Origin: a virus
Lineage: Duplodnaviria > Heunggongvirae > Uroviricota > Caudoviricetes
DNA: 64,000 nt
IMG/VR virus record: IMGVR_UViG_3300001605_000025
Span: 1-64,000 of that record
Reading direction: 5' to 3' (one strand)
Part shown: in pieces, positions 19,367-58,508 of the stretch
How the letters are laid out: each line of letters opens with the position of its first letter
Position numbering within the stretch: the first letter of the stretch is position 1
Program-made: the position numbers and the translations under genes
The notes under the pieces: model-generated
The model's database searches: none
Seen by the model: the letters and a program-made list of their open reading frames with translations, nothing else
What the model was told of the DNA's origin: nothing

Positions 19367-19367
19367 T

Positions 19368-20713: not shown

Positions 20714-20734
20714 GATGGTTAGTGGTGATGGACG

Positions 20735-42592: not shown

Positions 42593-43699
42593 CTACTTCA
42601 ACTTAACCAGATCACCGGCTAGTGTTTCTATCAGTCTATACTTAATCATATCAGCTAACTTCTCGTATACCTGTTTAGCATTCCAACCTACCATTGAACA
42701 TTCCTTAACGATATCACGTCTTGCACATGTTCCGCCGTGTAACGTAACGATGCGTCTAATCTGAACAAAGTCTAGGTTATTCGCTATGTCATCTCTCCAC
42801 ATCTTTTCATTTTGTAACAACGTTACTAGATCTGGATCCGTAACATCAAGATGCATAACAGGTTCGATCTCACGTTTCATCAGATGGTATCCAAGAATTA
42901 ACCGATTGAAGTAACTCGATTCAAAACTATATATATCCATCTCATGGTACAACTTCAGTATTGAGTCGTCAAATTCGATCTTGTTAATCGTATCCATCTG
43001 GTGTACTTGATCGTCGATGTTACTCCACAACACAGACATAGCTTGTGGATTCGGTCTTACATTTTGTGTCCGATGCATGATATCCATCAACGCTATATTA
43101 TCAGCATACGTAGGTAGGAATACCATAAAGATCAGTCTACGCCCTAACCCAGAACTAAGATCATAACTTCCAGGCTGAATTCCAGCCCACATCGATAGAT
43201 TCGTCTGATAGGCTATAGCTCCAGACGATAATCGTTTGAACACTCGTCCGTGATCTAACGCTGCTAACAGTTGTGTTTCCATCTGACTATTCATCTGATT
43301 CTTTAAGGCATCAGATATCGCTTTAAACTCATCAATTAACAACAGTCCATCTTTATTCAGTTCTGCAGCTCCAGGATTATTAATGCCTAAACCGTTAACC
43401 GACACGACAGTTCCAACAAAACCGGCTTCAGTCATTGACTGTTCACTAGCAATCTGGATCTCCGTCCCGTGAAAGATACCATGTGGATCAGCAGCCATAG
43501 TCTGGAGATAGTAAGTCTTCATAAACCCAGGTGGAGCTACAAATAGTAAGTGGCATCGCATATTCGGTAACTGCTTACCAGCATAGTATATCTCCCGTTT
43601 CTGGTTCATCAGATTGAACGCATGAACAGCATAGCTACAGGTAAAGTATGGAGCGTAGATCTCCCGTTTGTAAGCTTGCCGATCAGCAAGTTCACTCAT
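42593..43699 (-). CDS. MCM-like AAA+ ATPase (putative replicative helicase core)
   Basis: LLFVAPPGFMKT (Walker A-like), LLLIDEFKAISD (Walker B), QLLAALDHGRV...NLSMWAGIQP and GLGRRLIF are collinear with the MCM motifs (IDEFDKM, MEQQ, NAR..AAANP, SRFDL). Confidence 0.55.
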   Translation of the reverse strand: MSELADRQAYKREIYAPYFTCSYAVHAFNLMNQKREIYYAGKQLPNMRCHLLFVAPPGFMKTYYLQTMAADPHGIFHGTEIQIASEQSMTEAGFVGTVVSVNGLGINNPGAAELNKDGLLLIDEFKAISDALKNQMNSQMETQLLAALDHGRVFKRLSSGAIAYQTNLSMWAGIQPGSYDLSSGLGRRLIFMVFLPTYADNIALMDIMHRTQNVRPNPQAMSVLWSNIDDQVHQMDTINKIEFDDSILKLYHEMDIYSFESSYFNRLILGYHLMKREIEPVMHLDVTDPDLVTLLQNEKMWRDDIANNLDFVQIRRIVTLHGGTCARRDIVKECSMVGWNAKQVYEKLADMIKYRLIETLAGDLVKLK

Positions 43700-43722
43700 G
43701 ATCTGATCGTAAATTGATTTCG

Positions 43723-44355
43723 TTAGAATCTCTCCTTTAACGTTCTTCTTATCTGAATTGATTTCGCTGGACCAATTCCACGAACTCTCTGTAAATCTTT
43801 ATCTGGAACGTTTGCGATATTTGTTAAACAATTATGAGTCATCATTAATTGTGTCAGTTGTGCTGTTGAGATTCCAAGTAAACGTGCTGCCAGTATCGTG
43901 CGATCTCTTCTAACGGGAACATTATACTTTCCCTCATCAACTTTCTTCATGAACTTAACTAACGTGATCATACCTTCCCATTCGTTCTCTACCCATAACG
44001 GTTGAATACCGTACCGGCAGGCTATCGATGCGATCTCTCCGAAGAGAATATCTGGATCGATTGTTATCCCGATATCTCGCATATTCTTAACGTAAGGTGC
44101 TATAGCGCCTGTGATAAGCAGAATCTGGACTTTATCTTGGTGGACAGATATTCGTTCAATCTGATCGTGTATTCTACGATTAGGGCCTGTGATACTTCCA
44201 TACAAGTCTGCAATTGTCTTACGTTCAGCCAAACACCGTTCCGATTGGTAATCTCCTTCGTCTAGTTTAATCCTCCTGAACTTCATTTCCGGGAACTTCT
44301 TAGTTAAAAAGTCATAGTACTTTGGTGGCTCTCTTGTATCTACGTCGACTGGCAT
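43723..44355 (-). CDS. ERCC4/XPF-Mus81-Hef-type nuclease with C-terminal helix-hairpin-helix
   Basis: GDY...ERKTIADLYGSI is the ERCC4 signature GDxnERKx3D. C-terminal LQRVRGIGPAKSIQI is an HhH motif. Confidence 0.6.
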   Translation of the reverse strand: MPVDVDTREPPKYYDFLTKKFPEMKFRRIKLDEGDYQSERCLAERKTIADLYGSITGPNRRIHDQIERISVHQDKVQILLITGAIAPYVKNMRDIGITIDPDILFGEIASIACRYGIQPLWVENEWEGMITLVKFMKKVDEGKYNVPVRRDRTILAARLLGISTAQLTQLMMTHNCLTNIANVPDKDLQRVRGIGPAKSIQIRRTLKERF

Positions 44356-44594
44356 GGTATCGTTCCGCCTATCATTAGTTCCTCGTCACACCGTTTACAT
44401 CTACAGAGTACCTCGTAACGTACGGCTCCAACAATAACCTTCTTTAAAACAAAATCTGTAGGGTCCTCAGACCATATGCTAATTGGTTTCTCCATTATAT
44501 CACGATGAACTGTAACATCTAGAACGACCAGTTGATCAGCTGGATGTTTACAGTTTACTGCAGGATCTATTCCAACTATACTAGTTTCAGGCAC
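44340..44594 (-). CDS. hypothetical Cys-containing protein
   Basis: 84-aa ORF containing CRCKRC. Confidence 0.4.
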   Translation of the reverse strand: MPETSIVGIDPAVNCKHPADQLVVLDVTVHRDIMEKPISIWSEDPTDFVLKKVIVGAVRYEVLCRCKRCDEELMIGGTIPCQST

Positions 44595-44595
44595 G

Positions 44596-44811
44596 TTATC
44601 CCTCTCGGAAAACTTTTCGTTCTATCATCATTCGAATAGCTTCTAGTGCTGGAGATATCTCTACCCAGTCTCCAGAAAAATAGCTGGTTGGTAAGTTTGC
44701 TTTATCGCAATATGAATCAAACAGTTCAGACTTCTGCATCCATTCATGTTCTGTGTCCAGAAGCTCTAAAAATTGGACTAACGTTAGATTAGTTTCTTTC
44801 CCTTCCGACAT
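44596..44811 (-). CDS. hypothetical protein
   Basis: 71-aa ORF. Confidence 0.4.
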   Translation of the reverse strand: MSEGKETNLTLVQFLELLDTEHEWMQKSELFDSYCDKANLPTSYFSGDWVEISPALEAIRMMIERKVFREG

Positions 44812-45563
44812 ACCGACACCACGTCATGCTGATGAATTGATTCCTGATGTGTACAGACGACTACCCAATCTTCCATCCATCCATCGATCGTTGCACCGAT
44901 CACTCTTGAAGCATCCTCGACAAACAGATTCGTTCGGGCGGCTCGCTGACACCAATCTAGTTCGTCCGGTCTCTTCATCAACGGTATAGGAACAATGTCT
45001 ACCACTTCGATGATCCGTGCTACAATTGATGTCATTAGATCGTCCAGGTCCTCCTTCGGCGATAACAATCCAGTTACCTGTGCTAAAGCTCGCTGCATAT
45101 GAGGAACCCCTCCTTCTTGTTTCACCATTCTCATGGCACATGGGCACACACTCGCATACGGAACTTTCATAGTCAGATACCAATCTTCTTTATCGGGTAC
45201 ACGGACACCTTCTAACATACTATCTATAAAGATCAATTGTTCGTTCTCCATCTCATATGCTGCTGTCCAATTACATTCCCAGTAACTGTTAGTCGTTTCA
45301 TGTCCTTCAGCTAACGTTTCTAATAATTCTGAGTTCATATAAATCGGATCGTCCTCGTAATCTGTTAACGCATCAACTAATCGTGACATATGAACACCAG
45401 TCCGATCGATCAGATCAACATAAGCAGACTGACTTGTTAACGTTCGTCGTCCGCTAAAGTCTTGCATAAACTGTTTGAATCCTTTAATACCAACTTTCTC
45501 TAGTGGCATACCACCAGACGGACCTTCAGCATAGTCAGGTAACAATCGTACACATGAATCCAT
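44784..45563 (-). CDS. folE2: GTP cyclohydrolase I type 2 (FolE2/MptA family)
   Basis: AAGGAG SD before ATG at 45563 (track ORF trimmed). GVHMSRLV and SVCPCAM...PHMQRA match the FolE2 motifs (HMSR, CPC, HxQR). Confidence 0.7.
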   Translation of the reverse strand: MDSCVRLLPDYAEGPSGGMPLEKVGIKGFKQFMQDFSGRRTLTSQSAYVDLIDRTGVHMSRLVDALTDYEDDPIYMNSELLETLAEGHETTNSYWECNWTAAYEMENEQLIFIDSMLEGVRVPDKEDWYLTMKVPYASVCPCAMRMVKQEGGVPHMQRALAQVTGLLSPKEDLDDLMTSIVARIIEVVDIVPIPLMKRPDELDWCQRAARTNLFVEDASRVIGATIDGWMEDWVVVCTHQESIHQHDVVSVCRKGKKLI

Positions 45564-45564
45564 A

Positions 45565-45738
45565 CTACTGCTCCTTTGGGTTCTTCCAGTTACCAAATAC
45601 AGTCTCAAGAACAGCTGCTGAATATGGATGTGTATTACATGAATTATGAAGTAGCTGTTGGTCACAGCTTATAGCTCGTAACGCCTCTCCAATTGCATCT
45701 ACTTTCTGTTCAAGTCTTTTAAAGTCTTTAGTAGTCAT
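45565..45738 (-). CDS. small protein inside the deazaguanine cluster (57 aa, hand-called)
   Basis: TAATG overlap with the queE stop. Ends 2 nt before the folE2 start. Confidence 0.35.
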   Translation of the reverse strand: MTTKDFKRLEQKVDAIGEALRAISCDQQLLHNSCNTHPYSAAVLETVFGNWKNPKEQ

Positions 45739-46385
45739 TATCTCACCTTATACAGTACATGAAGTCTCGGGCTTACGGCTCCGTTAACTCCATATTCATC
45801 CATCATACGAATAATCTCACGAACCATTCTATTATGTTCCGTTATCATCGTATCGTCCTGGGGAGTCATCGGCATAAAGTACATTCTCACTTCAGAGTGT
45901 TCAGTTGCCCATTTCATCCACCATCTAATATTCTCATACCTAATAACTGGTTTAATAACTACATCTACTTCACAAATGTTAGTCCACAACGTTAATAGAT
46001 CGGTCAGTCCAGAAGTAGGTAGTTCACTATCTTTCGGACTAACAACTACCAGATCGAACGCAGCAACACCAAACGGTATCGTTCCATTCGTTTCGATAGC
46101 ATGTGTCATACCTAACGATTCAACTGAAGCGATCGTATCCTTTATCTCATCAACCTGGAGTCCAGGTTCTCCACCAGTCCAGACAACGTTCCTCACTCCT
46201 TTCTTATATGCTTTAGTAATCAGGCTTTTTAGTTCAGTCCGACTAACATTAATATACAGTGTTGCGTATTTCGTATCACAAAAAGGACAATGAAGATTAC
46301 AGCCCGATAGTCTTATAAACAACGACCGTACTCCAGCTTGTGGACCTTCACCCTGAATCGATATAAACGTTTCGTTTAGTCTCAT
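45738..46385 (-). CDS. queE: 7-carboxy-7-deazaguanine synthase (radical SAM QueE)
   Basis: FISIQGEGPQAGVRSLFIRLSGCNLHCPFCDTKY carries the CX3CX2C cluster motif and the QueE N-terminal signature. Confidence 0.85.
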   Translation of the reverse strand: MRLNETFISIQGEGPQAGVRSLFIRLSGCNLHCPFCDTKYATLYINVSRTELKSLITKAYKKGVRNVVWTGGEPGLQVDEIKDTIASVESLGMTHAIETNGTIPFGVAAFDLVVVSPKDSELPTSGLTDLLTLWTNICEVDVVIKPVIRYENIRWWMKWATEHSEVRMYFMPMTPQDDTMITEHNRMVREIIRMMDEYGVNGAVSPRLHVLYKVR

Positions 46386-46816
46386 TGTAACCCTCTCTCA
46401 GGAGTCCACGTGACGGTAGCCTTACTAACATCATTCTCCCATACCGTCACACTAACCATTGTTAGTGGTCCAAGTTTCCAGTTGTACACATCCATCACAC
46501 TATTACAAAGTAACGTTGCAATATTTTCGCATGTTGGATTCTCTCTCGTTGGATATACTAGTTGATTACACGATCTAAGTATCTGAACTAACGGATCAGA
46601 TTCTTTCAGTATCACTTTATGATCCATACCATCCGTTAGTCTTTTAAGTACCGTAAAGTTCTCGAGGTACCCAACAGAGTTAACTTTGTCACCCTGTAAG
46701 ACAAAATCTACTTTCCAATTATGCCCATGTAAGAATCCACATTTCGAATCATCACCATACTGTCTATGTGCAGCTTCAAAATCGACAGACGTCTGTATCG
46801 TAACCATGATGTTCAC
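46382..46816 (-). CDS. queD: 6-carboxytetrahydropterin synthase (QueD/PTPS family)
   Basis: FEAAHRQYGDDSKCGFLHGHNWKV is the PTPS His/Cys motif. 144 aa. 4-nt overlap with queE. Confidence 0.85.
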   Translation of the reverse strand: MNIMVTIQTSVDFEAAHRQYGDDSKCGFLHGHNWKVDFVLQGDKVNSVGYLENFTVLKRLTDGMDHKVILKESDPLVQILRSCNQLVYPTRENPTCENIATLLCNSVMDVYNWKLGPLTMVSVTVWENDVSKATVTWTPERGLQ

Positions 46817-46821
46817 CTAAA

Positions 46822-46992
46822 AATTTAGTGCCTGGTAACTACAGGTACTTGTTCACACTGTCTAACGATAGTCCCATTAGTTCCAGTTTTCTTATAATCA
46901 GTGCAATACATTTGAGGTCCATGTAACACTTTGAGTGCTGCTGGACATTTTCTAGCTCTCGATACGTTGACACATTTAACAATTTCTTTCAT
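46822..46992 (-). CDS. small Cys-rich protein (56 aa, hand-called)
   Basis: ATGA overlap with the upstream stop. Begins MKEIVKCVNVSRARKCP. Confidence 0.35.
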
Positions 46993-47219
46993 TTGACCGC
47001 CCTTAATAACGCTGATTCAGTCGATAACTGTTCATCATCAGGATATAGTTCCTCAAACATTGCTAACGATTCTTCAAATTGTTCCGTTGACATCTCTTTA
47101 TGATGTTTCACGTTCTGTTCTATCGTACCACAAATCTTTCGTGCAGCAATATCAGACTTTCCACGTTTCCGTTGTGCCGTCACACATGCTGCAAAATCTG
47201 GATATGGACCGATTGGCAT
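46989..47219 (-). CDS. hypothetical protein
   Basis: 76-aa ORF. Confidence 0.45.
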   Translation of the reverse strand: MPIGPYPDFAACVTAQRKRGKSDIAARKICGTIEQNVKHHKEMSTEQFEESLAMFEELYPDDEQLSTESALLRAVK

Positions 47220-47336
47220 AACTAATCATCTTCCTGTAGTTCTCTTTTGATCACAGTACATGCTGCGGTAATTGCACTACAGTAGACCTTACTCTCGGTT
47301 CTGTTCGATCCACCGTACCTACATTCATCTTTAATC

Positions 47337-47606
47337 TTAGCAATAAGTTCCTTTGCTGATAACATACTCATCTCCTTGGCCTAACGTTGATAGTGCTTTA
47401 GCTGATAACTGATAGATATTATTATACTGTTCTTGCGCTATCGTAATCAGCCAACCATCTTTAGATGCTCGTGTGATTGATGTCGCAACGTCATCACCAA
47501 GATACTTTCGAACCTTAGTTCTCGTAAATGATGTTTGCTTAAATCTATCGTACAGGAGAACAATTAGTTCTCGTGGTGGTATCTTGCCTACTTTCCGTCT
47601 AGTCAT
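47337..47606 (-). CDS. putative winged-helix DNA-binding protein
   Basis: 89 aa. Helix-turn-helix-like TRTKVRKYLGDDVATSITRASKDGWL. The assignment is tentative. Confidence 0.4.
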   Translation of the reverse strand: MTRRKVGKIPPRELIVLLYDRFKQTSFTRTKVRKYLGDDVATSITRASKDGWLITIAQEQYNNIYQLSAKALSTLGQGDEYVISKGTYC

Positions 47607-47608
47607 CT

Positions 47609-47827
47609 CTAACTCTCATCCTCCAGTTCCTTAGTTAAATCATCTCTCATATCATTAAGTTCAGCTCTTATATCAACCAACTGACTGTCTAGATCAGAAA
47701 TATTTAGTACTACTGTCTCAATATCAAGCTCGTCGGTACTACATAGCTTATGTACAGCATCAAGTTGGTTAATTGCTTCATTCATCATATACCTAATACT
47801 AGCTAAGTACTCAGGTATGTCGTTCAC
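47609..47827 (-). CDS. acidic coiled-coil protein
   Basis: 72-aa ORF. Confidence 0.4.
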   Translation of the reverse strand: MNDIPEYLASIRYMMNEAINQLDAVHKLCSTDELDIETVVLNISDLDSQLVDIRAELNDMRDDLTKELEDES

Positions 47828-48231
47828 TTTATCTCCCTCGCGATTACAACTCGATTCAAGTGGTCAGCTGTCTGAATATAAATGTTCGTTCTTGGAGTCC
47901 ATTTAATAGTAACACGAACATTCCGTTCACGAATAACAGTTAGAACAGTTGTACAGAGTTCAGCTAACCGTTTATTCGTAGTCTGGTACTGTTTGTTCAA
48001 CTGTTTAACAACAAGTTCACTATCCGAATACAGTGTTATGTCATCGTATCCCTCTCCTATACAATAGTTTAATGCGTTCAACAGTCCAGTATACTCAGCA
48101 ACGTTATTCGTTACACCTGTAAGTATATCAGTTCGTTGATACACTACTATATTGTTCTTCACTATTAAAAAGGAGGCTGCACCTATCCCGTTGCTATTCT
48201 TACCGGATCCATCACTGTAAGCTACAATCAT
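47824..48231 (-). CDS. rnhA: ribonuclease HI
   Basis: DEDD pattern: AYSDGSG, NNVAEYTGL, LYSDSELV and QTADHLN. 135 aa. Confidence 0.8.
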   Translation of the reverse strand: MIVAYSDGSGKNSNGIGAASFLIVKNNIVVYQRTDILTGVTNNVAEYTGLLNALNYCIGEGYDDITLYSDSELVVKQLNKQYQTTNKRLAELCTTVLTVIRERNVRVTIKWTPRTNIYIQTADHLNRVVIAREIK

Positions 48232-48323
48232 AACGTATCACCCTAAATACTGAACTAAGAAATGATGGACAACAATCGCTACTGTAACTCCTATTAGTAC
48301 TACTATAACCATCATTAAGTCTA

Positions 48324-48527
48324 TCATTTAGTGGTCACCTTTGGACGTTCCTCAATAACAAACGATATAATCAACGATAAGTGAGTAATGATAGCTTCAC
48401 ATTCTTCTAGTGATAGTTCTAATCGTTGTCCGACATCCCCACGATAAGACTGGTCACTCATCTGGCCACACATATATTTCCATTCTTGTTCTCTTATCGG
48501 TATAACTAATCGATTACCTCTAATCAT
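48324..48527 (-). CDS. hypothetical protein
   Basis: 67-aa ORF. Confidence 0.4.
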   Translation of the reverse strand: MIRGNRLVIPIREQEWKYMCGQMSDQSYRGDVGQRLELSLEECEAIITHLSLIISFVIEERPKVTTK

Positions 48528-48529
48528 CG

Positions 48530-48820
48530 TTATCCTCCCATAGCAATTGCATACAGTAGTTGACGTTCATCAGAACAAACTATCTCATCTTCACCTTGTT
48601 CAGCAATCTTATCCTCGAACATTTTAATCATTTTCGGACCACCGATAACCTTGGCAATTCCGTACCAAGTTTTCAGATTACTCGGTTCTCCAGTTGAGAT
48701 TATCAGATCTCCAGGTTTCCACGGATGAGGTGATGTTACACCCTCCACCCACGCTCCGTTAACAAACTTACCACTCATCATCACCACTCTCATCTTCTCC
48801 AGGGCAGTAATCGTTACCAC
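48530..48820 (-). CDS. hypothetical protein (start may be Met14/15)
   Basis: 96-aa ORF. Confidence 0.45.
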   Translation of the reverse strand: MVTITALEKMRVVMMSGKFVNGAWVEGVTSPHPWKPGDLIISTGEPSNLKTWYGIAKVIGGPKMIKMFEDKIAEQGEDEIVCSDERQLLYAIAMGG

Positions 48821-49030: not shown

Positions 49031-50950
49031 TTATGAACATCCAGACCACCCGCATGTCATACACGTTCCGCTTCTACAACCCGAACCGAAACTAAGTACC
49101 GTCCCACATTGTGGACACTTATTCGTTACAATTTCAGATTCTGTAAACCAGAATGCATTCATTCGTTTCGCAAGAATATCCGGACAACTCTTTCCAGCAG
49201 AGTTTGGATTCTTCATTGCGGTAGTACACTCAACTTTCGATAGCGTCGATATGATCCGTTTAATCGTTGTCTTCTCATCACCATAGAGTCTCGGGTCATG
49301 TATATACTTGGAAATAACCTTCCCCATTCCTTCCATGTTAGCCTTACATCCGCCTTGCGTGAGAACATAAGCTTCGTATGGGTGATCGTCGGCGATGTTG
49401 TTATTGGTAGTAACGTGTATCTCGCCACACCCTGTGGGGAAGTCCAACGTTCTACCGTATCGTTCAACTCTGTCTCCTTTAGAGCTCGGTTGGCCTCTTC
49501 CTGGAATCGGTCCAGTAGGTCGAACAGATGTAAGTACCTGTTTATCTTTTGAACCATCTCGATACACCGTTATCCCTTTGCATTTCAGTTTCCAAGCTAA
49601 ATGTATCGCATCCTCAATATCCTGTACTGTAGCACTTGATGATAGATTAATCGTTTTTGATACAGCGTTATCAACATGGTTCTGCCAGGCAGCCATATGT
49701 TTCAACTGCCACTCTACAGATATATGCTTAGCTGTATCTTCTAGTAATCCATGTTGTCTTGCGAGATCGGTCAGTGGATGTTCGAGTGTTACAATTCCAG
49801 CTTCTGACTCTCGTGTGTACGTCCAGTCAAATACTGGTTCGATACCTGACGAACAATCTGCAAGGAAGGATAATGTTCCAGTTGGAGCAATCGTCATAAC
49901 TGTTTCGTTGTTATAGGTCCGTCCTGGAACTTCTCTCGTTGCAACATCATAGTACCTAGATCCAATCTTATCGATCAACTGAATCGCTTCTGTTGATTGA
50001 TAGCTGATACCCATTTTAATCAGTAAGTCAGCCCAACCCATAACACCGGATCCAATCTTTCTAGACAGTAATGTAGCCTCTCGTATCTCTGGTATCGGGA
50101 ACGTATTCAAATCAATAACATCGTTTAACGCTCGTACCGACAATCTTACCGTATCGTCAAGCATCCCGTAATCAAACGTCTCTCCTTCCGGTATCAGTTT
50201 ACTTAGATTGATAGACGCTAAATTGCACGACTCATACGGTCGTAACGGCTGTTCGCCACAAGGGTTCGTACAATCGATAACACCTCTCTCAGGAAACCGA
50301 TTCGTCTCGTTGAGTCTATCCAAAAATACGACACCGGGGTCTCCCGTTCTCCAGGCATGCTCTGCAATAGTGTGAACCAGTCCGTTATCGCTTTGCATAT
50401 CTGAGTCCTTGATCCCGACGCTAATATTGAAATGTGATAGTCCGGATCCACTATCTTTACAGTGTATAAACTCTTGGATGTCTGGATGATCAGCGTTAAG
50501 TATCCCCATATTGGCACCCTCGCGTTTACCTCCTTGGGATACCACACCGGCTGACTCGTTAAGCAATTCCATGACTTTAACAGGACCACATGCTTTCCCT
50601 TTAGTTGATTGTATAAGTGAGCCACGTGGTCTAAGTCTAGAGAAGTTGAAACCGGTTCCACCAAAGTACTTATGCACACGGGCGGCGTGCCAAACCGTTC
50701 TATATATTCCATCCAGTGAATCTTCCACTGGTAAGACGTAACACGCTGATAATCCTCCAGCTCCCGGTACGCCTGCATTAACAAGCGTCGGAGTGTTTGG
50801 CAACCAGATTCCGTGAGACATAGCATTGAGCAATGTTTCCGTGTACTTGCGATCCTCTCGTCCGATAAACTTTGCAACTCTCTCATATACATCACGTTCT
50901 GTTCTCTCTCCAGGTTGTAAATAACGATCCTTTAGTAGTTTCTCTTTCAT
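49031..50950 (-). CDS. nrdJ: ribonucleotide reductase, class II (adenosylcobalamin-dependent)
   Basis: Catalytic loop CTNPCGEQPL...CNLASINL and C-terminal Cys-rich tail CPQCG...CRSGTCMTCGWSGCS, typical of class II enzymes. 639 aa. Confidence 0.9.
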   Translation of the reverse strand: MKEKLLKDRYLQPGERTERDVYERVAKFIGREDRKYTETLLNAMSHGIWLPNTPTLVNAGVPGAGGLSACYVLPVEDSLDGIYRTVWHAARVHKYFGGTGFNFSRLRPRGSLIQSTKGKACGPVKVMELLNESAGVVSQGGKREGANMGILNADHPDIQEFIHCKDSGSGLSHFNISVGIKDSDMQSDNGLVHTIAEHAWRTGDPGVVFLDRLNETNRFPERGVIDCTNPCGEQPLRPYESCNLASINLSKLIPEGETFDYGMLDDTVRLSVRALNDVIDLNTFPIPEIREATLLSRKIGSGVMGWADLLIKMGISYQSTEAIQLIDKIGSRYYDVATREVPGRTYNNETVMTIAPTGTLSFLADCSSGIEPVFDWTYTRESEAGIVTLEHPLTDLARQHGLLEDTAKHISVEWQLKHMAAWQNHVDNAVSKTINLSSSATVQDIEDAIHLAWKLKCKGITVYRDGSKDKQVLTSVRPTGPIPGRGQPSSKGDRVERYGRTLDFPTGCGEIHVTTNNNIADDHPYEAYVLTQGGCKANMEGMGKVISKYIHDPRLYGDEKTTIKRIISTLSKVECTTAMKNPNSAGKSCPDILAKRMNAFWFTESEIVTNKCPQCGTVLSFGSGCRSGTCMTCGWSGCS

Positions 50951-51603
50951 AGTCTCATCACGTTACCGATGTAATCTTCGTCACGCTTTAAGTACAGATG
51001 TGGACAGAAACAAATATGTGTATACGTTCCAACCGGTAGTCCTACAGCTAACGATATATGTTTCTGTAACTCCGTTAGTCCATACATATTTGGACCTAGT
51101 CCCAGTGTCATATCCTCCGACCGGAATACAACTTTCATATTTAAACGTCCTTCTCTTACATCACAATGTATCAACTGTAAGCACGGAACGTCTTCACGAG
51201 TCGTATCCAATTTCGGATTCCATGTTATCGCTTGAGCTCGTCTAGTAGATGGTGACCCAATAAGTTTCTGTTCAATATACGTTATCTGGTTGATCCCAAA
51301 GTGATGCGTTAATCGATCGTGGTAATCGTAGACAAAGTCAGCAGACGTTCCCGCAATCAGATCGTTAGCATACTGATCCATATACTTCTGACTGAACGGT
51401 AGTGTGGGAGGTTTAATAAATCGTGGTTCCACAAACGGAGTTCTAATAAACAATGCTAGTTCTTTAGCCTCAATAGTATCCTGTTTGTTCTCTCCAGGAT
51501 ATACAATCGGGCATTCAGTCTCATCTTTATAACAATGGTTCATGATATACCGTATAACGATCTCATGACCTTTCGCTAAGTTAGGTGCTTGTAACAACTT
51601 CAT
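50947..51603 (-). CDS. thymidylate synthase family enzyme (ThyA-like; short form; substrate/product not resolvable)
   Basis: VPCLQLIHCDVREGRLNMKVVFRSEDMTLGLGPNMYGL is collinear with the ThyA core PCH..FQFYV..GKL..QLYQRS.D..LG.PFN. Confidence 0.8.
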   Translation of the reverse strand: MKLLQAPNLAKGHEIVIRYIMNHCYKDETECPIVYPGENKQDTIEAKELALFIRTPFVEPRFIKPPTLPFSQKYMDQYANDLIAGTSADFVYDYHDRLTHHFGINQITYIEQKLIGSPSTRRAQAITWNPKLDTTREDVPCLQLIHCDVREGRLNMKVVFRSEDMTLGLGPNMYGLTELQKHISLAVGLPVGTYTHICFCPHLYLKRDEDYIGNVMRL

Positions 51604-52136: not shown

Positions 52137-52442
52137 TCACTTCTCCGGCCATGGTCGTCTATTAGCATGAAACATATACCCAACTCGTTGTAACGATCCA
52201 TCTAGTAGTCTAATACAAACTATCTCCGCATGATATCCAGCAGCTTCTAATGGAGCTACTTCATTACATATGATATCATTACATTCAGTAGTTAACCTAT
52301 TTGCTTGATCACCAAACTCAGTAACTGTTATCAATCCTGCTTTTAGGTCAAACCATAGATCATCTTTCCGTTTAGCTAATATCTGTAATCGATCGTGAGC
52401 ATCTTTTAATTCTTGAAGCTTCTGATCAGTCATAAATATCAC
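52137..52442 (-). CDS. hypothetical protein
   Basis: 101-aa ORF. Confidence 0.4.
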   Translation of the reverse strand: MIFMTDQKLQELKDAHDRLQILAKRKDDLWFDLKAGLITVTEFGDQANRLTTECNDIICNEVAPLEAAGYHAEIVCIRLLDGSLQRVGYMFHANRRPWPEK

Positions 52443-53184
52443 TAAACTTCTTTAGTCCATCATCTGGAAACAACCTCGGTAACTCCTCTAACGTACACAT
52501 ACGACAGGCTGCAAACTTTCCGTCCGAACAACGATACGGGAAGTCATTCTTATCTATTGCAGCACGTAGTTTAGCAATCCGTGTCAAAGCTAACCGTCTC
52601 ATATCATCTGTTAACTGTTCAGTATATATGGCTTGCAATCTTGGATTAATCAATCGAAGTTCGGTTATAGTTCCTGGGTTACCTGATAACTCCCAAAGTA
52701 CCGCATAGAAAGCTAATTGTCGTATAGCAGATTCCGTATTCATCTTACTACCGGTCTTATACTCTATCAGTCGTACAGTATTATATAGTTTGTCAACCCA
52801 CTCTGCACCATCTAACGTTGACTTTATCTGTATACGATCACATTGCATAAACAGTTCACGATACAGTGGACAGAACTCGTTCTCACGTTCCTCATTCCTT
52901 AGTTTGTCAAGTCGTTTCCGTTGATACGATAGGAACCATTCATACATTGATAGTTCTTCTTCATTCAACCAGTCTGCGGGTATTAGTTCCGACCAATCAT
53001 CAGGATCAATAGTTAGTGCATAGTCGAAGAATCGTTCAGCAAACTCATGAAACCTAGTCCCGATCAGCATCTTCTGGTTAACGGGTTTATTAACCAGTTC
53101 GACGTATTGGTGGTAAAATTGTCTCGGACAGAAGTCATAACTTTCTAGCATCGACTTTCGTATATGTTTATCGTTCATATACAT
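52426..53184 (-). CDS. Cas4-like PD-(D/E)xK nuclease with Fe-S cysteines
   Basis: N-terminal CPRQFY, RLIEYKTGSK (ExK), QLAFYAVLW (QxxxY) and a C-terminal CSDGKFAACRMC cysteine triad. Confidence 0.7.
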   Translation of the reverse strand: MYMNDKHIRKSMLESYDFCPRQFYHQYVELVNKPVNQKMLIGTRFHEFAERFFDYALTIDPDDWSELIPADWLNEEELSMYEWFLSYQRKRLDKLRNEERENEFCPLYRELFMQCDRIQIKSTLDGAEWVDKLYNTVRLIEYKTGSKMNTESAIRQLAFYAVLWELSGNPGTITELRLINPRLQAIYTEQLTDDMRRLALTRIAKLRAAIDKNDFPYRCSDGKFAACRMCTLEELPRLFPDDGLKKFSDIYD

Positions 53185-53260
53185 CCTCCGTGAAGAATCA
53201 CCAACGCAATCGCTATTATGAATCCCAATAGGACACCCAGTACAACATCTTGATTTACGT

Positions 53261-53962
53261 TCATATGTCTAACCTGTTTGATATAATCCATCCACAACCT
53301 ATTCCAGCAGCATTACCACTAATCGTTAGCGGCATATCTTGACCGATACCAATTATACACTCCTGTAGTCTACCGATTATCGGCTGTATCTGTTTCAAAT
53401 AATCAGTAGCTACAAGTACTGTAACTTTAGGTGCTTCCTCCTTTCGTATCGTAATCTCATCACGTTTATACGTAACGTCAACAAGTTCAGCTAACTTATC
53501 TTCAAAAACGATACCATCTGGTCCATACGTTATTTTCATAGCAGCACTACTGTCTTTCTTATCATAAGCGTCAGTAATTGTTTGTATCCCAAACTTCAGA
53601 TCGTTAGGTGTCATTGTAAAAACATTAGTCCATGGAATCTTCGGACTCGGTCCAGGTTTTACACCAGTCAATCTTTTCAGTTTATAGTTTGCACGTCCTG
53701 AATGAACAACTACCGGATTATCCAGTTCAATTGTAACGTCCCCAACCATCGTAGATGGAAAGTCATCAAACCTAAGTGCTAGATTAGTTGCATCAGTAGA
53801 CGTACAAGCAACTTTACATTCTACGAATCCTACCAACGCAATATCAGTCGCAGACATGAATAGATGATCCAGTTGAACGTTGATGTTACTTTCAGGAACA
53901 AACGATCTCATAATCGCTAACGCTAATGTTAATCGTTCTCCAGTTATCGTAATACTAGTCAT
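53261..53962 (-). CDS. PCNA-like sliding clamp
   Basis: 233 aa. The C-terminal region VLVATDYLKQIQPII...IGIGQDMPLTISGN matches the PCNA pattern (YL...k...v.l..g.d.Pl.l). Sits next to the replication genes. Confidence 0.6.
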   Translation of the reverse strand: MTSITITGERLTLALAIMRSFVPESNINVQLDHLFMSATDIALVGFVECKVACTSTDATNLALRFDDFPSTMVGDVTIELDNPVVVHSGRANYKLKRLTGVKPGPSPKIPWTNVFTMTPNDLKFGIQTITDAYDKKDSSAAMKITYGPDGIVFEDKLAELVDVTYKRDEITIRKEEAPKVTVLVATDYLKQIQPIIGRLQECIIGIGQDMPLTISGNAAGIGCGWIISNRLDI

Positions 53963-53975
53963 GGGTACTCTCCAG

Positions 53976-54113
53976 TCAGTTTACCTTTATAATTTCGTCT
54001 CCGTTTGATAATTTCTGTCCTACCTTTGGTTTAATTTTCATTACCGTTGTACTCAGTTTACCTTCTGGACTTCTAACAGATACAATCCATTTCGTCTGAG
54101 GTTTCCGTGTCAT
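53976..54113 (-). CDS. small basic protein (45 aa, hand-called)
   Basis: ATGA overlap with the dcd stop. Confidence 0.3.
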   Translation of the reverse strand: MTRKPQTKWIVSVRSPEGKLSTTVMKIKPKVGQKLSNGDEIIKVN

Positions 54114-54670
54114 GGTGTATTCTCGAAATAACGAGATCCCGTGGCTCCAGTCTGATCATGATATTTTGCGTCATGTTTCGAATAATACGGAACATTAGCG
54201 TGGTGTGTCTTATAAAAAACTAATTGAGCGATAGGCATCCCAGCTGTCAGAATGATAGAGCGCATATTCTCGTTCGTCATCTCTAAGGTAATTGTACCCC
54301 GGAATCCGCAATCCACCCATCCGCCAGTTTGATGTACAGTAATCCCTAATCTCGCTAACGAGCTTTTGCCTTCGATCGTCGCACATACTTCATCACTTAA
54401 CTCAATCCGTTCCATCGTTTCAGCTAGTAAGAATGAATTCTTCTCTAATGTTATCCGTTCAGCTGTAAAATGATGTAGACCAAGTTCTACTGATTCTTTA
54501 TCATATGGATCAATCGGATAGTTAAATGACTGGATATCATACACAGCAAAGTTATTACCTAGTCTAACATCAATACTATTCGACTGAATACCATTCTTAT
54601 ATAGTGGCAGTATCTTTATATCTCCACTTTCCAATAATCCGTTCAGTTGCCAATCAACCATTACGCTCAT
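54110..54670 (-). CDS. dcd: dCTP deaminase (dUTPase-fold)
   Basis: SSLARLGITVHQTGGWVDCGFRGTITLEMTN is the Dcd/Dut trimeric-fold signature. 186 aa. Confidence 0.85.
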   Translation of the reverse strand: MSVMVDWQLNGLLESGDIKILPLYKNGIQSNSIDVRLGNNFAVYDIQSFNYPIDPYDKESVELGLHHFTAERITLEKNSFLLAETMERIELSDEVCATIEGKSSLARLGITVHQTGGWVDCGFRGTITLEMTNENMRSIILTAGMPIAQLVFYKTHHANVPYYSKHDAKYHDQTGATGSRYFENTP

Positions 54671-55161
54671 TTATTATCATCCACCTTCGTTAACGTTGTA
54701 GTTATCGGGTTCTTTATTTCATTCGCTAACGCCCATTGTCTTGGATCATTCCACGGTTCGGGTTGGAATCCAACACCTGTTTCTTTCTTAAACTGATTAT
54801 CAGTAACGTATACAATTAAGAACCAGAGCATCCATCCTATACGTGCACGAAGTTCAGGAATTGCAACATACATCCATACGAAGTGATCAATTATAGGTCC
54901 AAAGATACTCTTTAACGTCTCATCAGTTTCATGTGACATGTAGTATTGTCTAAACATAAGCATTACGTGGTTGTTGGAGTTCCGCCAAATTGGATTACTA
55001 GGATTCCAGAGTTCAGGATCCAATTCCAGACTACCGATCACAATTGACATTCCTCTTAGTCTATCCAAAATAATAGGATCTATCGTCAACTTTCCATCTC
55101 CGTGTATCTGATATTCATTCTTATCTGTTACAGTTGCAGTCGCACTACCTTGTTGTTTCAT
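54667..55161 (-). CDS. hypothetical protein (Trp-rich)
   Basis: 164-aa ORF coupled between dcd and the next gene. Confidence 0.45.
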   Translation of the reverse strand: MKQQGSATATVTDKNEYQIHGDGKLTIDPIILDRLRGMSIVIGSLELDPELWNPSNPIWRNSNNHVMLMFRQYYMSHETDETLKSIFGPIIDHFVWMYVAIPELRARIGWMLWFLIVYVTDNQFKKETGVGFQPEPWNDPRQWALANEIKNPITTTLTKVDDNK

Positions 55162-55835
55162 CCTTTACCACCATGCATCATATCCCATAATTGACCACGA
55201 CCTGCAGGATACCAATGTTCTGGATAGAATGCCTTCAGTCCTAGACGTGATAACTCATCTCTTTTATACATATCTTTATGAACGTTCAGTCTCTCAATAA
55301 CAAAATTAACAGATCGTTCAATACCTTCATCAGTTTCGTACATATGAATTCCATAGTCCCAGAACTTGGTAATATATTCGATACGATCCATTCGTTTCTC
55401 ATGTGTCAGATATAGTGCACGTTCCTCCTTAAGTATCGTTAAACGTTTAGACTTATCGGTAGTACTCCATTCAGTATACCGTTCTATCAGTCTCCACATT
55501 AGATATCCGAATCGTTCATAGTACATATCATCATTTCGATGAAGAACCACTAGAAATGCTCCTAACCGGTGTATTGCAAGTCTATTCAACCACGAACATC
55601 CTTTTAACAATTTGGGTATCTCACGAACATACTCATCAAATAGTACCATGGTTAACTTCATACTGTCAGTTATAAACTCACCACTATCAACTCGTAACCA
55701 CTCAGGTCTTAATATCAATCCTTTCAGTAGATTAATATTATTACCGTTCATGATCACATCAAGAATCAGTGGTTTGTCTTTCGCATGGAACTCGGCTCCA
55801 TGTCCATCATCATACCATAAACTAGGAACTCTCAT
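55158..55835 (-). CDS. hypothetical protein
   Basis: 225-aa ORF with 4-nt overlap coupling. Confidence 0.45.
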   Translation of the reverse strand: MRVPSLWYDDGHGAEFHAKDKPLILDVIMNGNNINLLKGLILRPEWLRVDSGEFITDSMKLTMVLFDEYVREIPKLLKGCSWLNRLAIHRLGAFLVVLHRNDDMYYERFGYLMWRLIERYTEWSTTDKSKRLTILKEERALYLTHEKRMDRIEYITKFWDYGIHMYETDEGIERSVNFVIERLNVHKDMYKRDELSRLGLKAFYPEHWYPAGRGQLWDMMHGGKG

Positions 55836-56208
55836 TGAACACCTGTGTCTGTACTCTTTCTAGTGGAATTGTACCAATATCTTTAACACCATATTCAACC
55901 GACGTAGCTGTAAGTGCCTGTCGGTTACCATACGAAAAATATACATAGTATAGTCCGATAGAGGATCCTTTAGGAAGTGTCACACTGAATGATCCATCAC
56001 CGGTTGTACTAGTATTGGCGACATCTTTAGAACTTTCATTTTTCACGGTAACTACTATAGCTGCTTGTGGAAGACCATCTACTGTGGCCTTACCTTGAAT
56101 TTTAATATAGTCAGGAGTCGGAGTTGGTGTAGGTGTTGGTACAATAACCAATACTAGGAGTATAGCCACGAGTATCATGACTGTCCATACTATCTGTTTC
56201 AGATCCAT
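55822..56208 (-). CDS. membrane-anchored protein with (TP)4 linker and carboxypeptidase-regulatory-like beta-sandwich
   Basis: Trimmed to Met45, 15 nt after the polB stop. TM VWTVMILVAILLVLVIV, then PTPTPTPTP, then GKATVDGLPQAAIVVTVKN...GDGSFSVTLPKGS. Confidence 0.5.
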   Translation of the reverse strand: MDLKQIVWTVMILVAILLVLVIVPTPTPTPTPDYIKIQGKATVDGLPQAAIVVTVKNESSKDVANTSTTGDGSFSVTLPKGSSIGLYYVYFSYGNRQALTATSVEYGVKDIGTIPLERVQTQVFNESS

Positions 56209-56222
56209 TTGATCACATCCAA

Positions 56223-58508
56223 TTAGAACCATTTTGTTAGTCCGGTTTGTCCATTGATTTCTGTATCCCAATTCAATCCGATAGATTCCATTAAAGACTC
56301 CATCTTCATCTGAACTGTCTTCAGTCCCATTTTTTGCCAATCAACCGTAACACGAGATAATAGATCAGCGTCAGGATAATCAGTATCGATACATATAACG
56401 TCAACGGGACTAATGCAATATAATAACTTAGGCTTCTTGTCTGCCCTGAACTTAATTCCAAGAAGTTTCCGTCCATTCTCTTTACCTCGAATCCAAGGGC
56501 TTGAACCTCTCTCTTCGTGTGAACGATTCTTTGTAATACCCTTAGGTATCGCTACAAGTTGACAACCAACTCTACCGTTCAATATATTATAGTAAGTTTC
56601 TCTTATTAAACGTACTGCTGTTTCGGGATCATTGTTAACGAGAACGTTCTCGAAGAATTGTTTCATCAACGTTCTCGATATCTCGGCAGTATCCGATCGT
56701 TTGACTTCAAGCCCAGTATAGTTAACCTTTGGTGGTAGTTTTGTAAGGTCTTGTCCATCCTTCCAAATAAGAACACCGGCATAACGTTTCTTCGCAGCGA
56801 CGTCCTTGTCCGACCGTTTCTTAAACATAAGTGTGCGGTATATCTTCTCCAGTTTAAGCGTAGGAGCAAGATGGTCGGCGATATTGACGGATCGTGCCCA
56901 ATCCAAGAGATAAGTATTGAGTTCCGTCTGGATGCGCAAACCTTCTTCTGGTGTCTTAACTGGCTTGATAAACGTACTGTCCGTATCCCCATAGACGATA
57001 GTATAACCCAACTCTCTGATGCGTTTATGTAGTTCTCTGGAGATCTCGCGACCCTTTCCAGTAATAAACGCTGCGATTTCGGGTTTATGGAGTCTGGCTC
57101 CAGAAAAAGCCAAATATCCGTAGAACGCGTTGATGACATATTTCAAACTCTGTTCACTAGTTAACATAGCCTTTGAGGCTTTACCTTCCATTTTCAATCG
57201 TCTCATCACATCTCTAGCTTCCATCAATTCAACGATGATCTTAGGTATCATCTTAAGTCTGTCCGGACTCAGATTAAACGCTAAGATAATTGATGGGTAT
57301 AGAGCTTTCAAATCAGTAGTACCAACGTTCTCGTGAACACCAAACTCCGGTTGTAAGACTAACGCTCCTTCATAATCAACCGATACCACATCATGTCGCT
57401 TAGTCGGTAGAGGCATAACCTCACCAGCTAATACGACCTTATGCATGATATAGTATTCGATAATCTTTGCACGTTGATAGCAATCGGTAATCTTGATACC
57501 GACCATCCTACGGAGAGACTCGTAGAACTCTATAAGTCCAGTTTCAGCATCGATCTTCTGTAACGCAATAACATCATTCTTTCCGTACTGTATAAGTTCC
57601 TTCCAACGCTTCTCTTGGATCAAGGTACGGATATGATCTCCGTGGTCTTCGTACGTGAACTGTGCCTCGTGCCGTGCCACAAACTTTAAGTCGTAAGTTG
57701 GTAAACCACCCTTTGGCTTGCTCCAGTCCTTGTAGAATTTCAGCATATCGAAGAGTTCCCGTCCTTGCCATCTCTCCTCGTCTGGGTACGTCGTAGGCCA
57801 CCTCGATAACTTCGAAACATTGACCTTGAGCATCCTTGCTCTTCTTATGATATACGGAATATCGAACTTTTCGCTGTACCAACCGCACATCAGATCCGGA
57901 TCTGTTCTCCAAACGAACTCTACAAATGCTGTGAGTAATTCCTGTTCCGTATCGAACGACTCTTGGTCTGGGTCGATCAACTCTCCGTTCAGTGTAAACA
58001 CTTTGCACTCTGATGTGTAAGAATCTAGGACCTGTATCTGACAGATTGGCCATTTGCATTCCTCCGGTAGTGGCATTTCATCAACTGGACTATCAACTTC
58101 AATATCGAAAAAGCAGCATCTCGGTTTCAACATCGGAACGTCTATTGGGTGTCCCAGTTCATCGAACCCATACATGATTCCGTGATCGATTAGGTAACGC
58201 ATATCGTAAACGATATCCGCTTCGCACGTAAACGGAAAGAGATCACGTACCTTCGGAACGTCACTCGGTAATCTTGTGAAACATCGTGTAACGTTTCGCC
58301 CAAAAGCATCAATGTAACCAGGTTCCGTTCTAGTGATAAAAGGAGTTGACGGAATGTACGACCCTCCTCCGTAAAAGTAAGGTTCTTGATTTCCAAACCC
58401 CATAACTTTGACTTCTTCCGGTTTATCATAATTCCGACCTATCAATACCGTTATTGGTTTCCCGTTATGCATTGTCCAGAACGATTGTTCCCAAACGTAC
58501 CGACTCAT
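56223..58508 (-). CDS. polB: family B DNA polymerase
   Basis: Exo I FFDIEV, pol motif A DLKALYPSII, motif B KYVINAFYGYLAF, motif C YGDTDS. 761 aa. Confidence 0.92.
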   Translation of the reverse strand: MSRYVWEQSFWTMHNGKPITVLIGRNYDKPEEVKVMGFGNQEPYFYGGGSYIPSTPFITRTEPGYIDAFGRNVTRCFTRLPSDVPKVRDLFPFTCEADIVYDMRYLIDHGIMYGFDELGHPIDVPMLKPRCCFFDIEVDSPVDEMPLPEECKWPICQIQVLDSYTSECKVFTLNGELIDPDQESFDTEQELLTAFVEFVWRTDPDLMCGWYSEKFDIPYIIRRARMLKVNVSKLSRWPTTYPDEERWQGRELFDMLKFYKDWSKPKGGLPTYDLKFVARHEAQFTYEDHGDHIRTLIQEKRWKELIQYGKNDVIALQKIDAETGLIEFYESLRRMVGIKITDCYQRAKIIEYYIMHKVVLAGEVMPLPTKRHDVVSVDYEGALVLQPEFGVHENVGTTDLKALYPSIILAFNLSPDRLKMIPKIIVELMEARDVMRRLKMEGKASKAMLTSEQSLKYVINAFYGYLAFSGARLHKPEIAAFITGKGREISRELHKRIRELGYTIVYGDTDSTFIKPVKTPEEGLRIQTELNTYLLDWARSVNIADHLAPTLKLEKIYRTLMFKKRSDKDVAAKKRYAGVLIWKDGQDLTKLPPKVNYTGLEVKRSDTAEISRTLMKQFFENVLVNNDPETAVRLIRETYYNILNGRVGCQLVAIPKGITKNRSHEERGSSPWIRGKENGRKLLGIKFRADKKPKLLYCISPVDVICIDTDYPDADLLSRVTVDWQKMGLKTVQMKMESLMESIGLNWDTEINGQTGLTKWF

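Follow-up and report, generated by a model that had tools for sequence, protein, structure and literature searches.

An archaeal-type replication block and a candidate 7-deazaguanine DNA-modification set in a siphovirus-like virus, most likely of a non-halophilic anaerobic archaeon

Gene content of the replication block

The stretch considered here (the window) covers 64,000 of the 74,870 bp of a contig assembled from run SRR943323 (IMG/VR record IMGVR_UViG_3300001605_000025). It belongs to a siphovirus-like virus with a genome of roughly 75 kb, whose minus strand carries at ~42.6-63.5 kb a block composed of replication, nucleotide-supply and DNA-modification genes. An earlier note, made from the sequence alone, had described nine components of an archaeal- or eukaryal-flavoured replisome at positions 42593-58508. 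All nine were found there on the minus strand by Pfam, NCBIfam, profile and fold comparisons; overlooked were the PCNA-interacting protein (PIP) box of the polymerase, QueD, QueE, a DpdA-like transglycosylase, a dCTP deaminase, a Sak4-like ATPase and Ro60.

The module gave no megablast match among 50,697 phage records. It was kept in ~25 related contigs of 50-75 kb, and the lineage consisted of dozens of metagenomic genomes of that size, without an isolate.

Polymerase and sliding clamp

The polymerase and its candidate clamp were encoded as follows (all coordinates refer to the window).

56223..58508, minus strand: family B DNA polymerase (PolB) with 3'-5' exonuclease domain, 761 amino acids (aa) (Pfam DNA_pol_B, 109 bits, plus exo1)
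56226..56249, minus strand: C-terminal PIP box QTGLTKWF of the polymerase (sequence reading)
53261..53962, minus strand: PCNA-type sliding clamp, 233 aa (four-sequence profile against the PDB)

The best isolate matches of PolB were found in haloarchaeal tailed viruses (25-28 % identity over 97 % of its length), and its nearest cellular homologues on Methanocorpusculum chromosomes (29-32 %, in a scan of one genome per species). These affinities are consistent with membership of group B5 as defined by Kazlauskas et al. (PMC7544198). A chromosomal PolB was present in every Methanocorpusculum genome returned (L014-L033, L042 and L048), including complete chromosomes and isolates, a distribution that would fit the viral origin proposed for group B5 (PMC7544198).

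The clamp candidate displayed no match to Pfam or PHROG, nor to the PDB when searched as a single sequence. A profile built from the viral protein and three orthologues from related contigs (profile A2) was therefore the form compared with the PDB. Its positions 1-234 aligned to residues 1-242 of Archaeoglobus fulgidus PCNA (1rwz_A) with an E-value of 2.3e-20, which bears out the PCNA-like clamp of the earlier note. Haloferax volcanii PCNA (3hi8) followed at 5.9e-16, and 17 PCNA chains in all matched below 1e-3; eukaryotic PCNA reached ~0.25 and the bacterial beta clamp ~1. Judged by this profile, the viral clamp is closest to euryarchaeal PCNA. Its orthologues were confined to close relatives, and tblastn gave no match in the phage collection.

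A C-terminus of the QxxLxxWF type was kept in most of the 43 aligned polymerases of the family. Since PolB ends in a PIP box, polymerase and clamp are probably a matched pair, and the two would be expected to bind each other physically. No primase, ligase or clamp loader was recognised by Pfam over all open reading frames (ORFs) of the window, as the earlier note had also reported. With a PCNA, a PIP-box polymerase and no recognisable clamp loader, the virus would therefore use the replication factor C (RFC) of its host. A 397-aa AAA protein encoded at 5003-6196 was considered as clamp loader and is unlikely to be one: its match was to the generic AAA domain, and AAA_lid_3 is present in its relatives.

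Directly downstream of the polymerase were two further conserved genes.

54667..55835, minus strand: two conserved proteins of 164 and 225 aa

Neither protein had a Pfam or PHROG match; orthologues occupied the same position in six related contigs (L003, L005, L006, L092, L093 and L095). Many family members harboured inteins (Pfam LAGLIDADG_3, Intein_splicing) in PolB and in the large terminase subunit (TerL), among them P0017, P0021, P0022, P0064, P0195 and P0232. One relative on an LGVE01 scaffold (L007/L008, 12605-14758, PolB 42 %) encoded Gad1 and Tad3 anti-defence homologues and a DUF5371 protein directly after the polymerase.

MCM-like protein and its nuclease partner

The two genes at the end of the block formed a pair.

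42593..43699, minus strand: MCM-like protein, AAA+ core with C-terminal winged helix, 368 aa (AlphaFold/Foldseek, profile)
43723..44355, minus strand: XPF/Hef-type ERCC4 nuclease with helix-hairpin-helix (HhH), 210 aa (Pfam ERCC4, 39.6 bits, cut-off 24)

Relatives of the MCM-like protein (311 among 1.8 billion representatives) were typically ~375 aa long. Its AlphaFold model, built on 53 relatives, reached a predicted local distance difference test (pLDDT) score of 94.3, and the top 50 Foldseek matches in the PDB were all MCM subunits (MCM2-7; E 3e-12 to 9e-10). The MCM-like AAA+ core of the earlier note is thus upheld by fold, though Pfam MCM (PF00493) stayed at 20.5 bits, below its cut-off of 23.3. 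Profile positions 316-366 matched residues 634-684 of Sulfolobus solfataricus MCM (E 8.2e-5) and also an isolated winged-helix domain (2m45). The sequence displayed the strings PPGFMKT and IDEF and an RR-LIF region, which we take to be the MCM-type Walker A, the Walker B and the arginine-finger region, respectively. In the model, the ATPase started near residue 48 and was preceded by one long helix, with no N-terminal OB/Zn domain. Archaeal MCM and the MCM copies of archaeal mobile elements share the AAA+ fold and the C-terminal winged helix with it; archaeal MCM, however, measures ~650-700 aa with helical, Zn and OB N-terminal parts, whereas the whole N-terminal domain is absent from the viral protein. 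The latter is accordingly modelled as an MCM-derived AAA+ core plus winged helix, truncated N-terminally. Two-stretch matches of ~700 aa hinted at an insertion in the MCM-like gene of some members.

The protein might instead be an AAA+ machine of another kind that shares no more than the fold with MCM, for instance a remodeller resembling ClpX or MoxR, a packaging ATPase or one related to defence. The Pfam score below cut-off and the missing OB/Zn DNA-binding domain would agree with this, as would the deep family profile, whose ATPase part had ClpX as its best sequence match (E 2.7e-5). Such a function is nevertheless unlikely, given that all 50 top fold matches were MCM, that the winged helix independently matched archaeal MCM, that the MCM-type motifs given above are readable and that, within the replication block, the gene invariably had the XPF-type nuclease gene as its partner.

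This pair was kept in L009, L035, L096, L099, L102 and L106. The nuclease aligned to positions 573-778 of the 781 of the NCBIfam Hef model, i.e. its nuclease-HhH end, and displayed both EGDY...ERKTIAD (the GDxnERKx3D active site) and a GIGPAKS hairpin. It was a short nuclease-HhH form, devoid of the N-terminal helicase domain of euryarchaeal Hef.

Other nucleases, recombination and nucleotide supply

47824..48231, minus strand: RNase HI, 135 aa (Pfam RVT_3 and RNase_H)
49031..50950, minus strand: class II (B12-dependent) ribonucleotide reductase (RNR) with TSCPD domain (TIGR02504 NrdJ, 484.5 bits, cut-off 399.95)
50947..51603, minus strand: short ThyA, 218 aa (TIGR03283 'thy_syn_methano', 162.9 bits)
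52426..53184, minus strand: Cas4-like PD-(D/E)XK exonuclease (Pfam PDDEXK_1, 70 bits; Cas_Cas4, 30 bits)
54110..54670, minus strand: dCTP deaminase (Pfam DCD, 138 bits; TIGR02274, 165 bits, above cut-off)
61190..61969, minus strand: AAA_24/Sak4-like ATPase (Pfam AAA_24, 52 bits; PHROG 124, Sak4-like)

The best NCBIfam model for RNase HI was of Thermoproteota type (RNAseHI_Thmprot, 73.9 bits), in agreement with the archaeal type given to it in the earlier note. The class II RNR and its Cys-rich tail were likewise recovered, the former above the model cut-off and the latter with eight Cys in the last 30 residues. The short ThyA form aligned over its full length (residues 4-211 to positions 3-200 of 201 of TIGR03283) and displayed the catalytic Cys; its score was under the cut-off of 174.55. 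The Cas4-like protein carried four Cys (Cys19 and CX8CX2C), and its gene was conserved across the family. After PolB, the Sak4-like ATPase and the Cas4-like nuclease were the two most widely conserved genes of the family.

A 331-aa protein was encoded outside the window, upstream of Ro60 (L001, 2917-3912). In relatives its gene directly preceded the AAA_24 gene, whereas here they were separated by an insertion made up of the Ro60 gene and an RNA array (see below). A weak OB-fold match (E 0.008) was obtained for one orthologue out of six, and the protein may be a candidate single-stranded DNA-binding protein (RPA-like).

Proposed 7-deazaguanine module

44784..45563, minus strand: GTP cyclohydrolase FolE2 (Pfam GCHY-1, 112 bits)
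45738..46385, minus strand: QueE, radical-SAM 7-carboxy-7-deazaguanine synthase (Pfam Radical_SAM; CxxxCxxC motif)
46382..46816, minus strand: QueD, 6-carboxytetrahydropterin synthase (Pfam PTPS, 76.6 bits)
59658..60494, minus strand: DpdA3-like candidate 7-deazaguanine DNA transglycosylase with tRNA-guanine transglycosylase (TGT) fold, 278 aa (AlphaFold fold, hhalign)

FolE2, QueD and QueE are predicted to constitute the three-step route from GTP to 7-carboxy-7-deazaguanine (CDG). The cyclohydrolase had been described in the earlier note as FolE2/MptA-type and counted among the replisome components; it scored 103.7 bits with the FolE2 model and 45.4 bits with that of MptA, and was closer to bacterial FolE2. 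The first half of that name fits better than the second, and the protein belongs to the 7-deazaguanine pathway rather than to the replisome. The top five NCBIfam matches of QueE were all QueE models, each far below cut-off. QueD displayed CGFLHGH, i.e. the CxxxHGH motif by which this single T-fold protein was ruled out as the decarboxylase DpdL, a paralogue of QueD (PMC10516641).

All viruses known to carry 7-deazaguanine synthesis genes encode a transglycosylase of the DpdA family (PMC10516641), and the 278-aa protein was examined for that reason. Its AlphaFold model, based on 34 sequences, was a single barrel with a pLDDT of 91.5, and the top 50 fold matches in the PDB were all tRNA-guanine transglycosylases (E 1.5e-8; template modelling score 0.61-0.66). 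The third-ranking match in BFVD was M4SLA5, a 259-aa protein of Cellulophaga phage phiST (E 6e-9). It was equated, by organism and length, with CGPG_00065, the founding DpdA3 (PMC10516641). By hhalign the 278-aa protein aligned with phiST DpdA3 over 214 columns at 24 % identity (probability 83.6 %, E 8e-6), the motifs DNxxxx, HxxGxx and (S/T)xDSx being aligned between the two. The subfamily comparison covered DpdA3 and DpdA4.

The 278-aa protein was conserved beside the polymerase throughout the close family. Every close-family locus with Que genes also possessed its gene, and the six loci without it held no Que genes within 10 kb. In DpdA3 phages the pathway stops at CDG (PMC10516641); the FolE/QueD/QueE-only set with DpdA3 parallels that of Campylobacter phages and phiST (PMC10516641), with which the virus shares the lack of QueC and a small single-domain transglycosylase of TGT fold (259-278 aa). 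The differences are that those phages use FolE instead of FolE2, that their hosts are bacteria and that this virus has no DpdL paralogue. By analogy, FolE2, QueD, QueE and the TGT-fold protein would form a module that places CDG in the viral DNA.

Several points weigh against this assignment. No QueC was present anywhere in the window. The 278-aa protein displayed no match in Pfam (including TGT and DUF6610), in PHROG or, by tblastn, in the phage collection, and no sequence-only match in the PDB either alone or with profiles of six and 34 sequences. Its link to DpdA3 consists of the fold and of that hhalign probability against a single sequence, and DpdA4 was ruled out as its family (probability 0.2 % with HVTV-1 gp69).

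The same four genes could alternatively boost or rewire tRNA modification in the infected cell, through archaeosine or queuosine precursors, and leave the viral DNA unmodified. The closest solved structures are indeed tRNA-guanine transglycosylases, archaeal hosts use preQ0 for tRNA archaeosine, and host enzymes would be needed to reach preQ0 from a set lacking QueC. In all viruses with these genes examined to date, however, the role of the DpdA-family protein is to place the base in DNA (PMC10516641, PMC6884629), and the closest named viral match by structure and profile is the phiST protein equated with DpdA3, which comes from a phage with complete replacement of its guanines (PMC10516641). 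The single barrel is moreover without the additional C-terminal domains that tRNA transglycosylases of archaea possess. A role in tRNA modification is thus quite unlikely, and DNA modification is the preferred reading of the module.

Expression signals, Ro60 and tRNA-like array

12437..12444, plus strand: TATA-like box TTTAAATA; the first late gene starts 42 nt further on (ATG at 12479)
16045-16052, plus strand: twin TATA-like box TTTTATATATAGG, 41 nt before the gene at 16086
61973-63496, minus strand: Ro60/TROVE protein with vWA domain, a gene of the minus-strand block

TTTAWATA-like boxes before operons, pointed out in the earlier note with TTTAAATA as example, were confirmed, a second one being located at 16045. 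Across the window and its relatives, the regions upstream of genes were ~11-fold enriched in TTTAWATA, with five of nine sites at -31 to -42, and ATATAGG recurred at 12442, 16050, 12271 (minus) and 51836 (minus). Runs of at least five T followed eight of 109 stop codons where ~2.1 were expected (3.8-fold enrichment), as the note had described. Both types of signal met in region 15979-16085: the putative portal gene ended in TAACTTCTTTTT, followed ~60 nt further by TTTTATATATAGG, an arrangement that looks like an oligo-T terminator and then a TATA-box promoter. Shine-Dalgarno sites of the GGAGG type, also claimed previously, were frequent, together with others of the GGTG type. Bacterial sigma-70 promoters and hairpin (intrinsic) terminators, considered as a host signal, were at or below shuffled expectation.

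The best match of Ro60 in the phage collection was in the haloarchaeal virus HGTV-1 (E 3e-71), and its use as a bacterial marker was dropped on that account. Its gene was preceded by an ORF-free stretch of ~1.1 kb running past the window end (region 61973-64000; L001, 3900-5012), in which ACRGWTACTTC recurs about eight times at intervals of 80-150 nt, alongside five GGTTCAAMYCC hairpins that resemble T-arms. The stretch thus has the look of a series of degenerate tRNA-like units, which may be Y RNAs of the YrlA type partnering Ro60. One unit scored 30.9-34.5 bits with the Rfam tRNA model and ARAGORN called none; no true tRNA was present in the window, which held degenerate tRNA-like elements only.

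Host

The host is probably archaeal. This earlier proposal was supported by the affinities of PolB, PCNA and Ro60, by the tRNA identities of relatives, by the lack of a peptidoglycan hydrolase (none by Pfam in any ORF of the 64 kb, nor in the tape measure) and by the lack of an excess of sigma-70 promoters or terminators. RNase HI, the Hef-type nuclease and, with a score under its cut-off, ThyA were also of archaeal type according to NCBIfam models. The enrichment of TTTAWATA boxes and of oligo-T runs counts in the same direction, as does the gene repertoire, much of which recurs in HGTV-1 and HVTV-1.

The tRNA evidence was drawn from three relatives. L102 (PolB 41 %; MCM-like protein E 1e-97; ERCC4, Cas4-like and 331-aa genes in common) encoded a 72-nt tRNA-Tyr bearing C1-G72 but lacking a variable arm (V-arm), and a tRNA-Asn with G1-C72. 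In L013 (PolB 33 %; Ro60 E 1e-112), tRNA-Tyr was C1-G72 without V-arm, tRNA-Trp G1-C72 with A73, tRNA-Gln A1-U72 and tRNA-Asn G1-C72. L006 (PolB 52 %; PCNA, DpdA-like and four other genes in common) carried a tRNA-Gln with A1-U72. The bacterial identity sets are G1-C72 plus V-arm for Tyr, G73 for Trp and U1-A72 for Gln and Asn (PMC5370408, PMC2811023). Control viruses HGTV-1 and HVTV-1, parsed alike, displayed the same archaeal features, and by these positions the tRNAs of the family bear archaeal identity sets.

The proteome was not acidic (median isoelectric point 5.6; D+E 12.6 %), so the host is predicted not to be a haloarchaeon, in line with the moderate, non-haloarchaeal composition noted before. 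A methanogen is plausible. The compatibility with methanogens proposed earlier holds as compatibility, the hints being the methanogen-type ThyA (below cut-off), the PolB of Methanocorpusculum (29-32 %) and the methanogenic source sample. As to the latter, a 22-kb copy of the contig was found as IMG contig MLSBCLC_10062756 of metagenome 3300002220. The acronym MLSB, used in this sense in PMC4200150, was read as Mildred Lake Settling Basin, the name of an oil-sands tailings pond that is methanogenic. No matching lineage was found in the literature on viruses of methanogens and Bathyarchaeia.

A number of observations count against an archaeal host. The tRNAs belong to relatives at 33-52 % PolB identity, and some bacteria of the candidate phyla radiation (CPR) have an archaeal-type tyrosyl-tRNA synthetase (TyrRS) with C1-G72 tRNATyr (PMC5370408). 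No provirus copy was found in 185,579 species genomes scanned with the PolB alignment, a scan that returned only binned whole-virus contigs and cellular PolBs, and the window held no integrase. Related whole-virus contigs lay in metagenome-assembled genomes (MAGs) bearing the labels Babeliales, Paceibacterota, Saccharibacteria, Patescibacteria, Syntrophaceae, Clostridia and Cloacimonadota. Bacterial types are resembled by FolE2 and QueE, and the best isolate matches of TerL were bacterial jumbo phages and cyanophages (~22 %). Finally, tblastn against 50,697 records of phages and archaeal viruses returned nothing for the major capsid protein (MCP) or the putative portal, which suggests a separate lineage.

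Best hits in bacteria had been named in the earlier note as the outcome that would speak against archaea. Those found were the weak TerL matches and the unreliable bin labels. The labels also included Dehalococcoidales, Thorarchaeota and Thermoprotei, were mutually inconsistent for PolB and TerL homologues, and were treated as binning noise. L013, in a MAG labelled Patescibacteria, carried 16 tRNAs with archaeal identity elements, and such bins therefore probably contain mis-binned archaeal virus contigs. Whole or partial family genomes were seen inside MAGs given the labels Patescibacteria, Babeliales, Paceibacterota, Saccharibacteria and Syntrophaceae (L013/L107, L009/L098, L010, L011 and L012).

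These labels are also the starting point of another explanation, namely a bacteriophage of small-genome bacteria (CPR/Patescibacteria, Dependentiae) which acquired an archaeal-type replisome and tRNAs matching the archaeal-type synthetases of some CPR lineages. Family contigs were binned in MAGs of Paceibacterota, Saccharibacteria, Patescibacteria and Babeliales; C1-G72 tRNATyr and archaeal TyrRS or tryptophanyl-tRNA synthetase (TrpRS) are reported from CPR bacteria (PMC5370408); and the lack of nucleotide synthesis in the latter would fit the viral nucleotide genes. FolE2 and QueE, moreover, resemble bacterial types. The bins were inconsistent, however, and the contigs were whole viral genomes, not integrated copies. 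In CPR, a V-arm is retained by most C1-G72 tRNATyr, and a TrpRS of archaeal type is very rare (PMC5370408). A PCNA without viral clamp loader needs RFC, which is absent from bacteria; tRNA-Gln with A1-U72 and tRNA-Asn with G1-C72 are unsuited to recognition by bacterial GatCAB (PMC2811023). Neither a peptidoglycan hydrolase nor an excess of sigma-70 promoters or intrinsic terminators was found. A CPR host is, on balance, very unlikely; if true, it would mean that a phage operates archaeal replication machinery inside bacterial cells, and would explain the recurrent binning with CPR. The archaeal host remains the preferred reading in what follows.

Genome layout and structural genes

13003..28389, plus strand: siphovirus-type structural block (TerL, portal candidate, capsid protein, tail tube, tape measure)

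The window had a GC content of ~41 % and was divided by GC skew into three transcription blocks, on the minus (1-12.3 kb), plus (12.5-42.0 kb) and minus strand (42.0-63.5 kb). In the plus block, the set expected of Caudoviricetes was represented, with genes for an HK97-type capsid, a terminase and a tail. The capsid protein matched Pfam Phage_capsid_4 and the tail tube protein Phage_tube_2; TerL displayed a weak TerL_ATPase match and has homologues among metagenomic proteins. The 499-aa putative portal gene was assigned from position only. No sheath protein was found in the structural block. The tape measure was 2374 aa long, and PKD-domain and beta-helix fibre proteins were also encoded on the plus strand. 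Endolysin, holin, integrase, sigma factor and transcription factor were not recognised by Pfam among window ORFs of at least 40 aa.

Residues 548-693 of the tape measure (22906-23343) formed a YpsA-type SLOG domain (Pfam, 111.8 bits) with a weaker DprA-like match, an unusual passenger in such a protein. The left early block encoded an SPFH/Band 7 protein (901-1800, 85.5 bits) and the classical 397-aa AAA ATPase (5003-6196) mentioned above, in place of which relatives carried a 514-529 aa protein with AAA and AAA_lid_3 beside the dCTP deaminase.

Comparison with known archaeal viruses

Tailed viruses of archaea that encode a PolB, a clamp, nucleotide enzymes, Ro60 and deazaguanine clusters themselves are already known (HGTV-1, HVTV-1 and magroviruses). 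HGTV-1 (Halomagnusviridae) and HVTV-1 (Druskaviridae) resemble this virus in their tailed architecture, a PolB of the same group and a PD-(D/E)XK/RecB-like nuclease. HGTV-1 additionally encodes a dCTP deaminase, an RNR, a thymidylate synthase, RNase HI and a TROVE/Ro60 protein, and HVTV-1 displays a 7-deazaguanine cluster beside its replication genes. HVTV-1, however, encodes RFC subunits, QueC, QueF and DpdA4, whereas the present virus has a DpdA3-like protein and neither clamp loader nor QueC. It differs from both in its non-acidic proteome, its anoxic non-saline habitat and an MCP, portal and PCNA without match at BLAST level.

Magroviruses (Aoguangviridae), associated with marine group II archaea, are uncultivated archaeal tailed viruses and are alike by description. 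The gene set of magroviruses includes a primase and a ligase; neither was recognised here, which sets this virus apart by description. Magroviruses also carry a sliding clamp and a PolB close to group B5 (PMC7544198, PMC5434244). The virus is thus distinct by lineage, by habitat, by its truncated MCM, and by a CDG-only pathway that occurs together with a divergent DpdA3-like enzyme in a probably archaeal virus.

Proposed mechanism and implications

Taken together, the block is best read, with a probability of about 0.7, as the early/middle module of a siphovirus-like virus whose host is most likely a non-halophilic anaerobic archaeon, a module serving replication, precursor supply and genome protection. 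In such a scheme, a polymerase of the halovirus/Methanomicrobiales type would be tethered through its C-terminal PIP box to the virus-encoded PCNA ring while the truncated MCM unwinds the DNA and RNase HI removes primers. The XPF/Hef-type nuclease, the Cas4-like exonuclease and the Sak4-like ATPase would trim flaps and DNA ends and assist replication that depends on recombination. Primase, RFC clamp loader and ligase would be supplied by the host, an arrangement workable only with the archaeal versions of these factors.

The class II RNR, the dCTP deaminase and the putatively methanogen-type ThyA would make deoxynucleotides without oxygen. FolE2, QueD and QueE would turn GTP into CDG, and the DpdA3-like enzyme would then exchange CDG, or a derivative made by the host, for guanine in the viral DNA after replication. 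The modified DNA may in this way escape host restriction.

Little is known of tailed viruses that infect non-halophilic anaerobic archaea, and this lineage would add an example in which the virus encodes both polymerase and clamp and a pared-down MCM. The arguments from tRNA identity and from PIP box and PCNA offer a practical route to assign such contigs to archaea and to flag mis-binned viral contigs in bacterial MAGs. With the DpdA3-like enzyme and the CDG-only pathway, a further group of viruses may join those known for 7-deazaguanine DNA modification.

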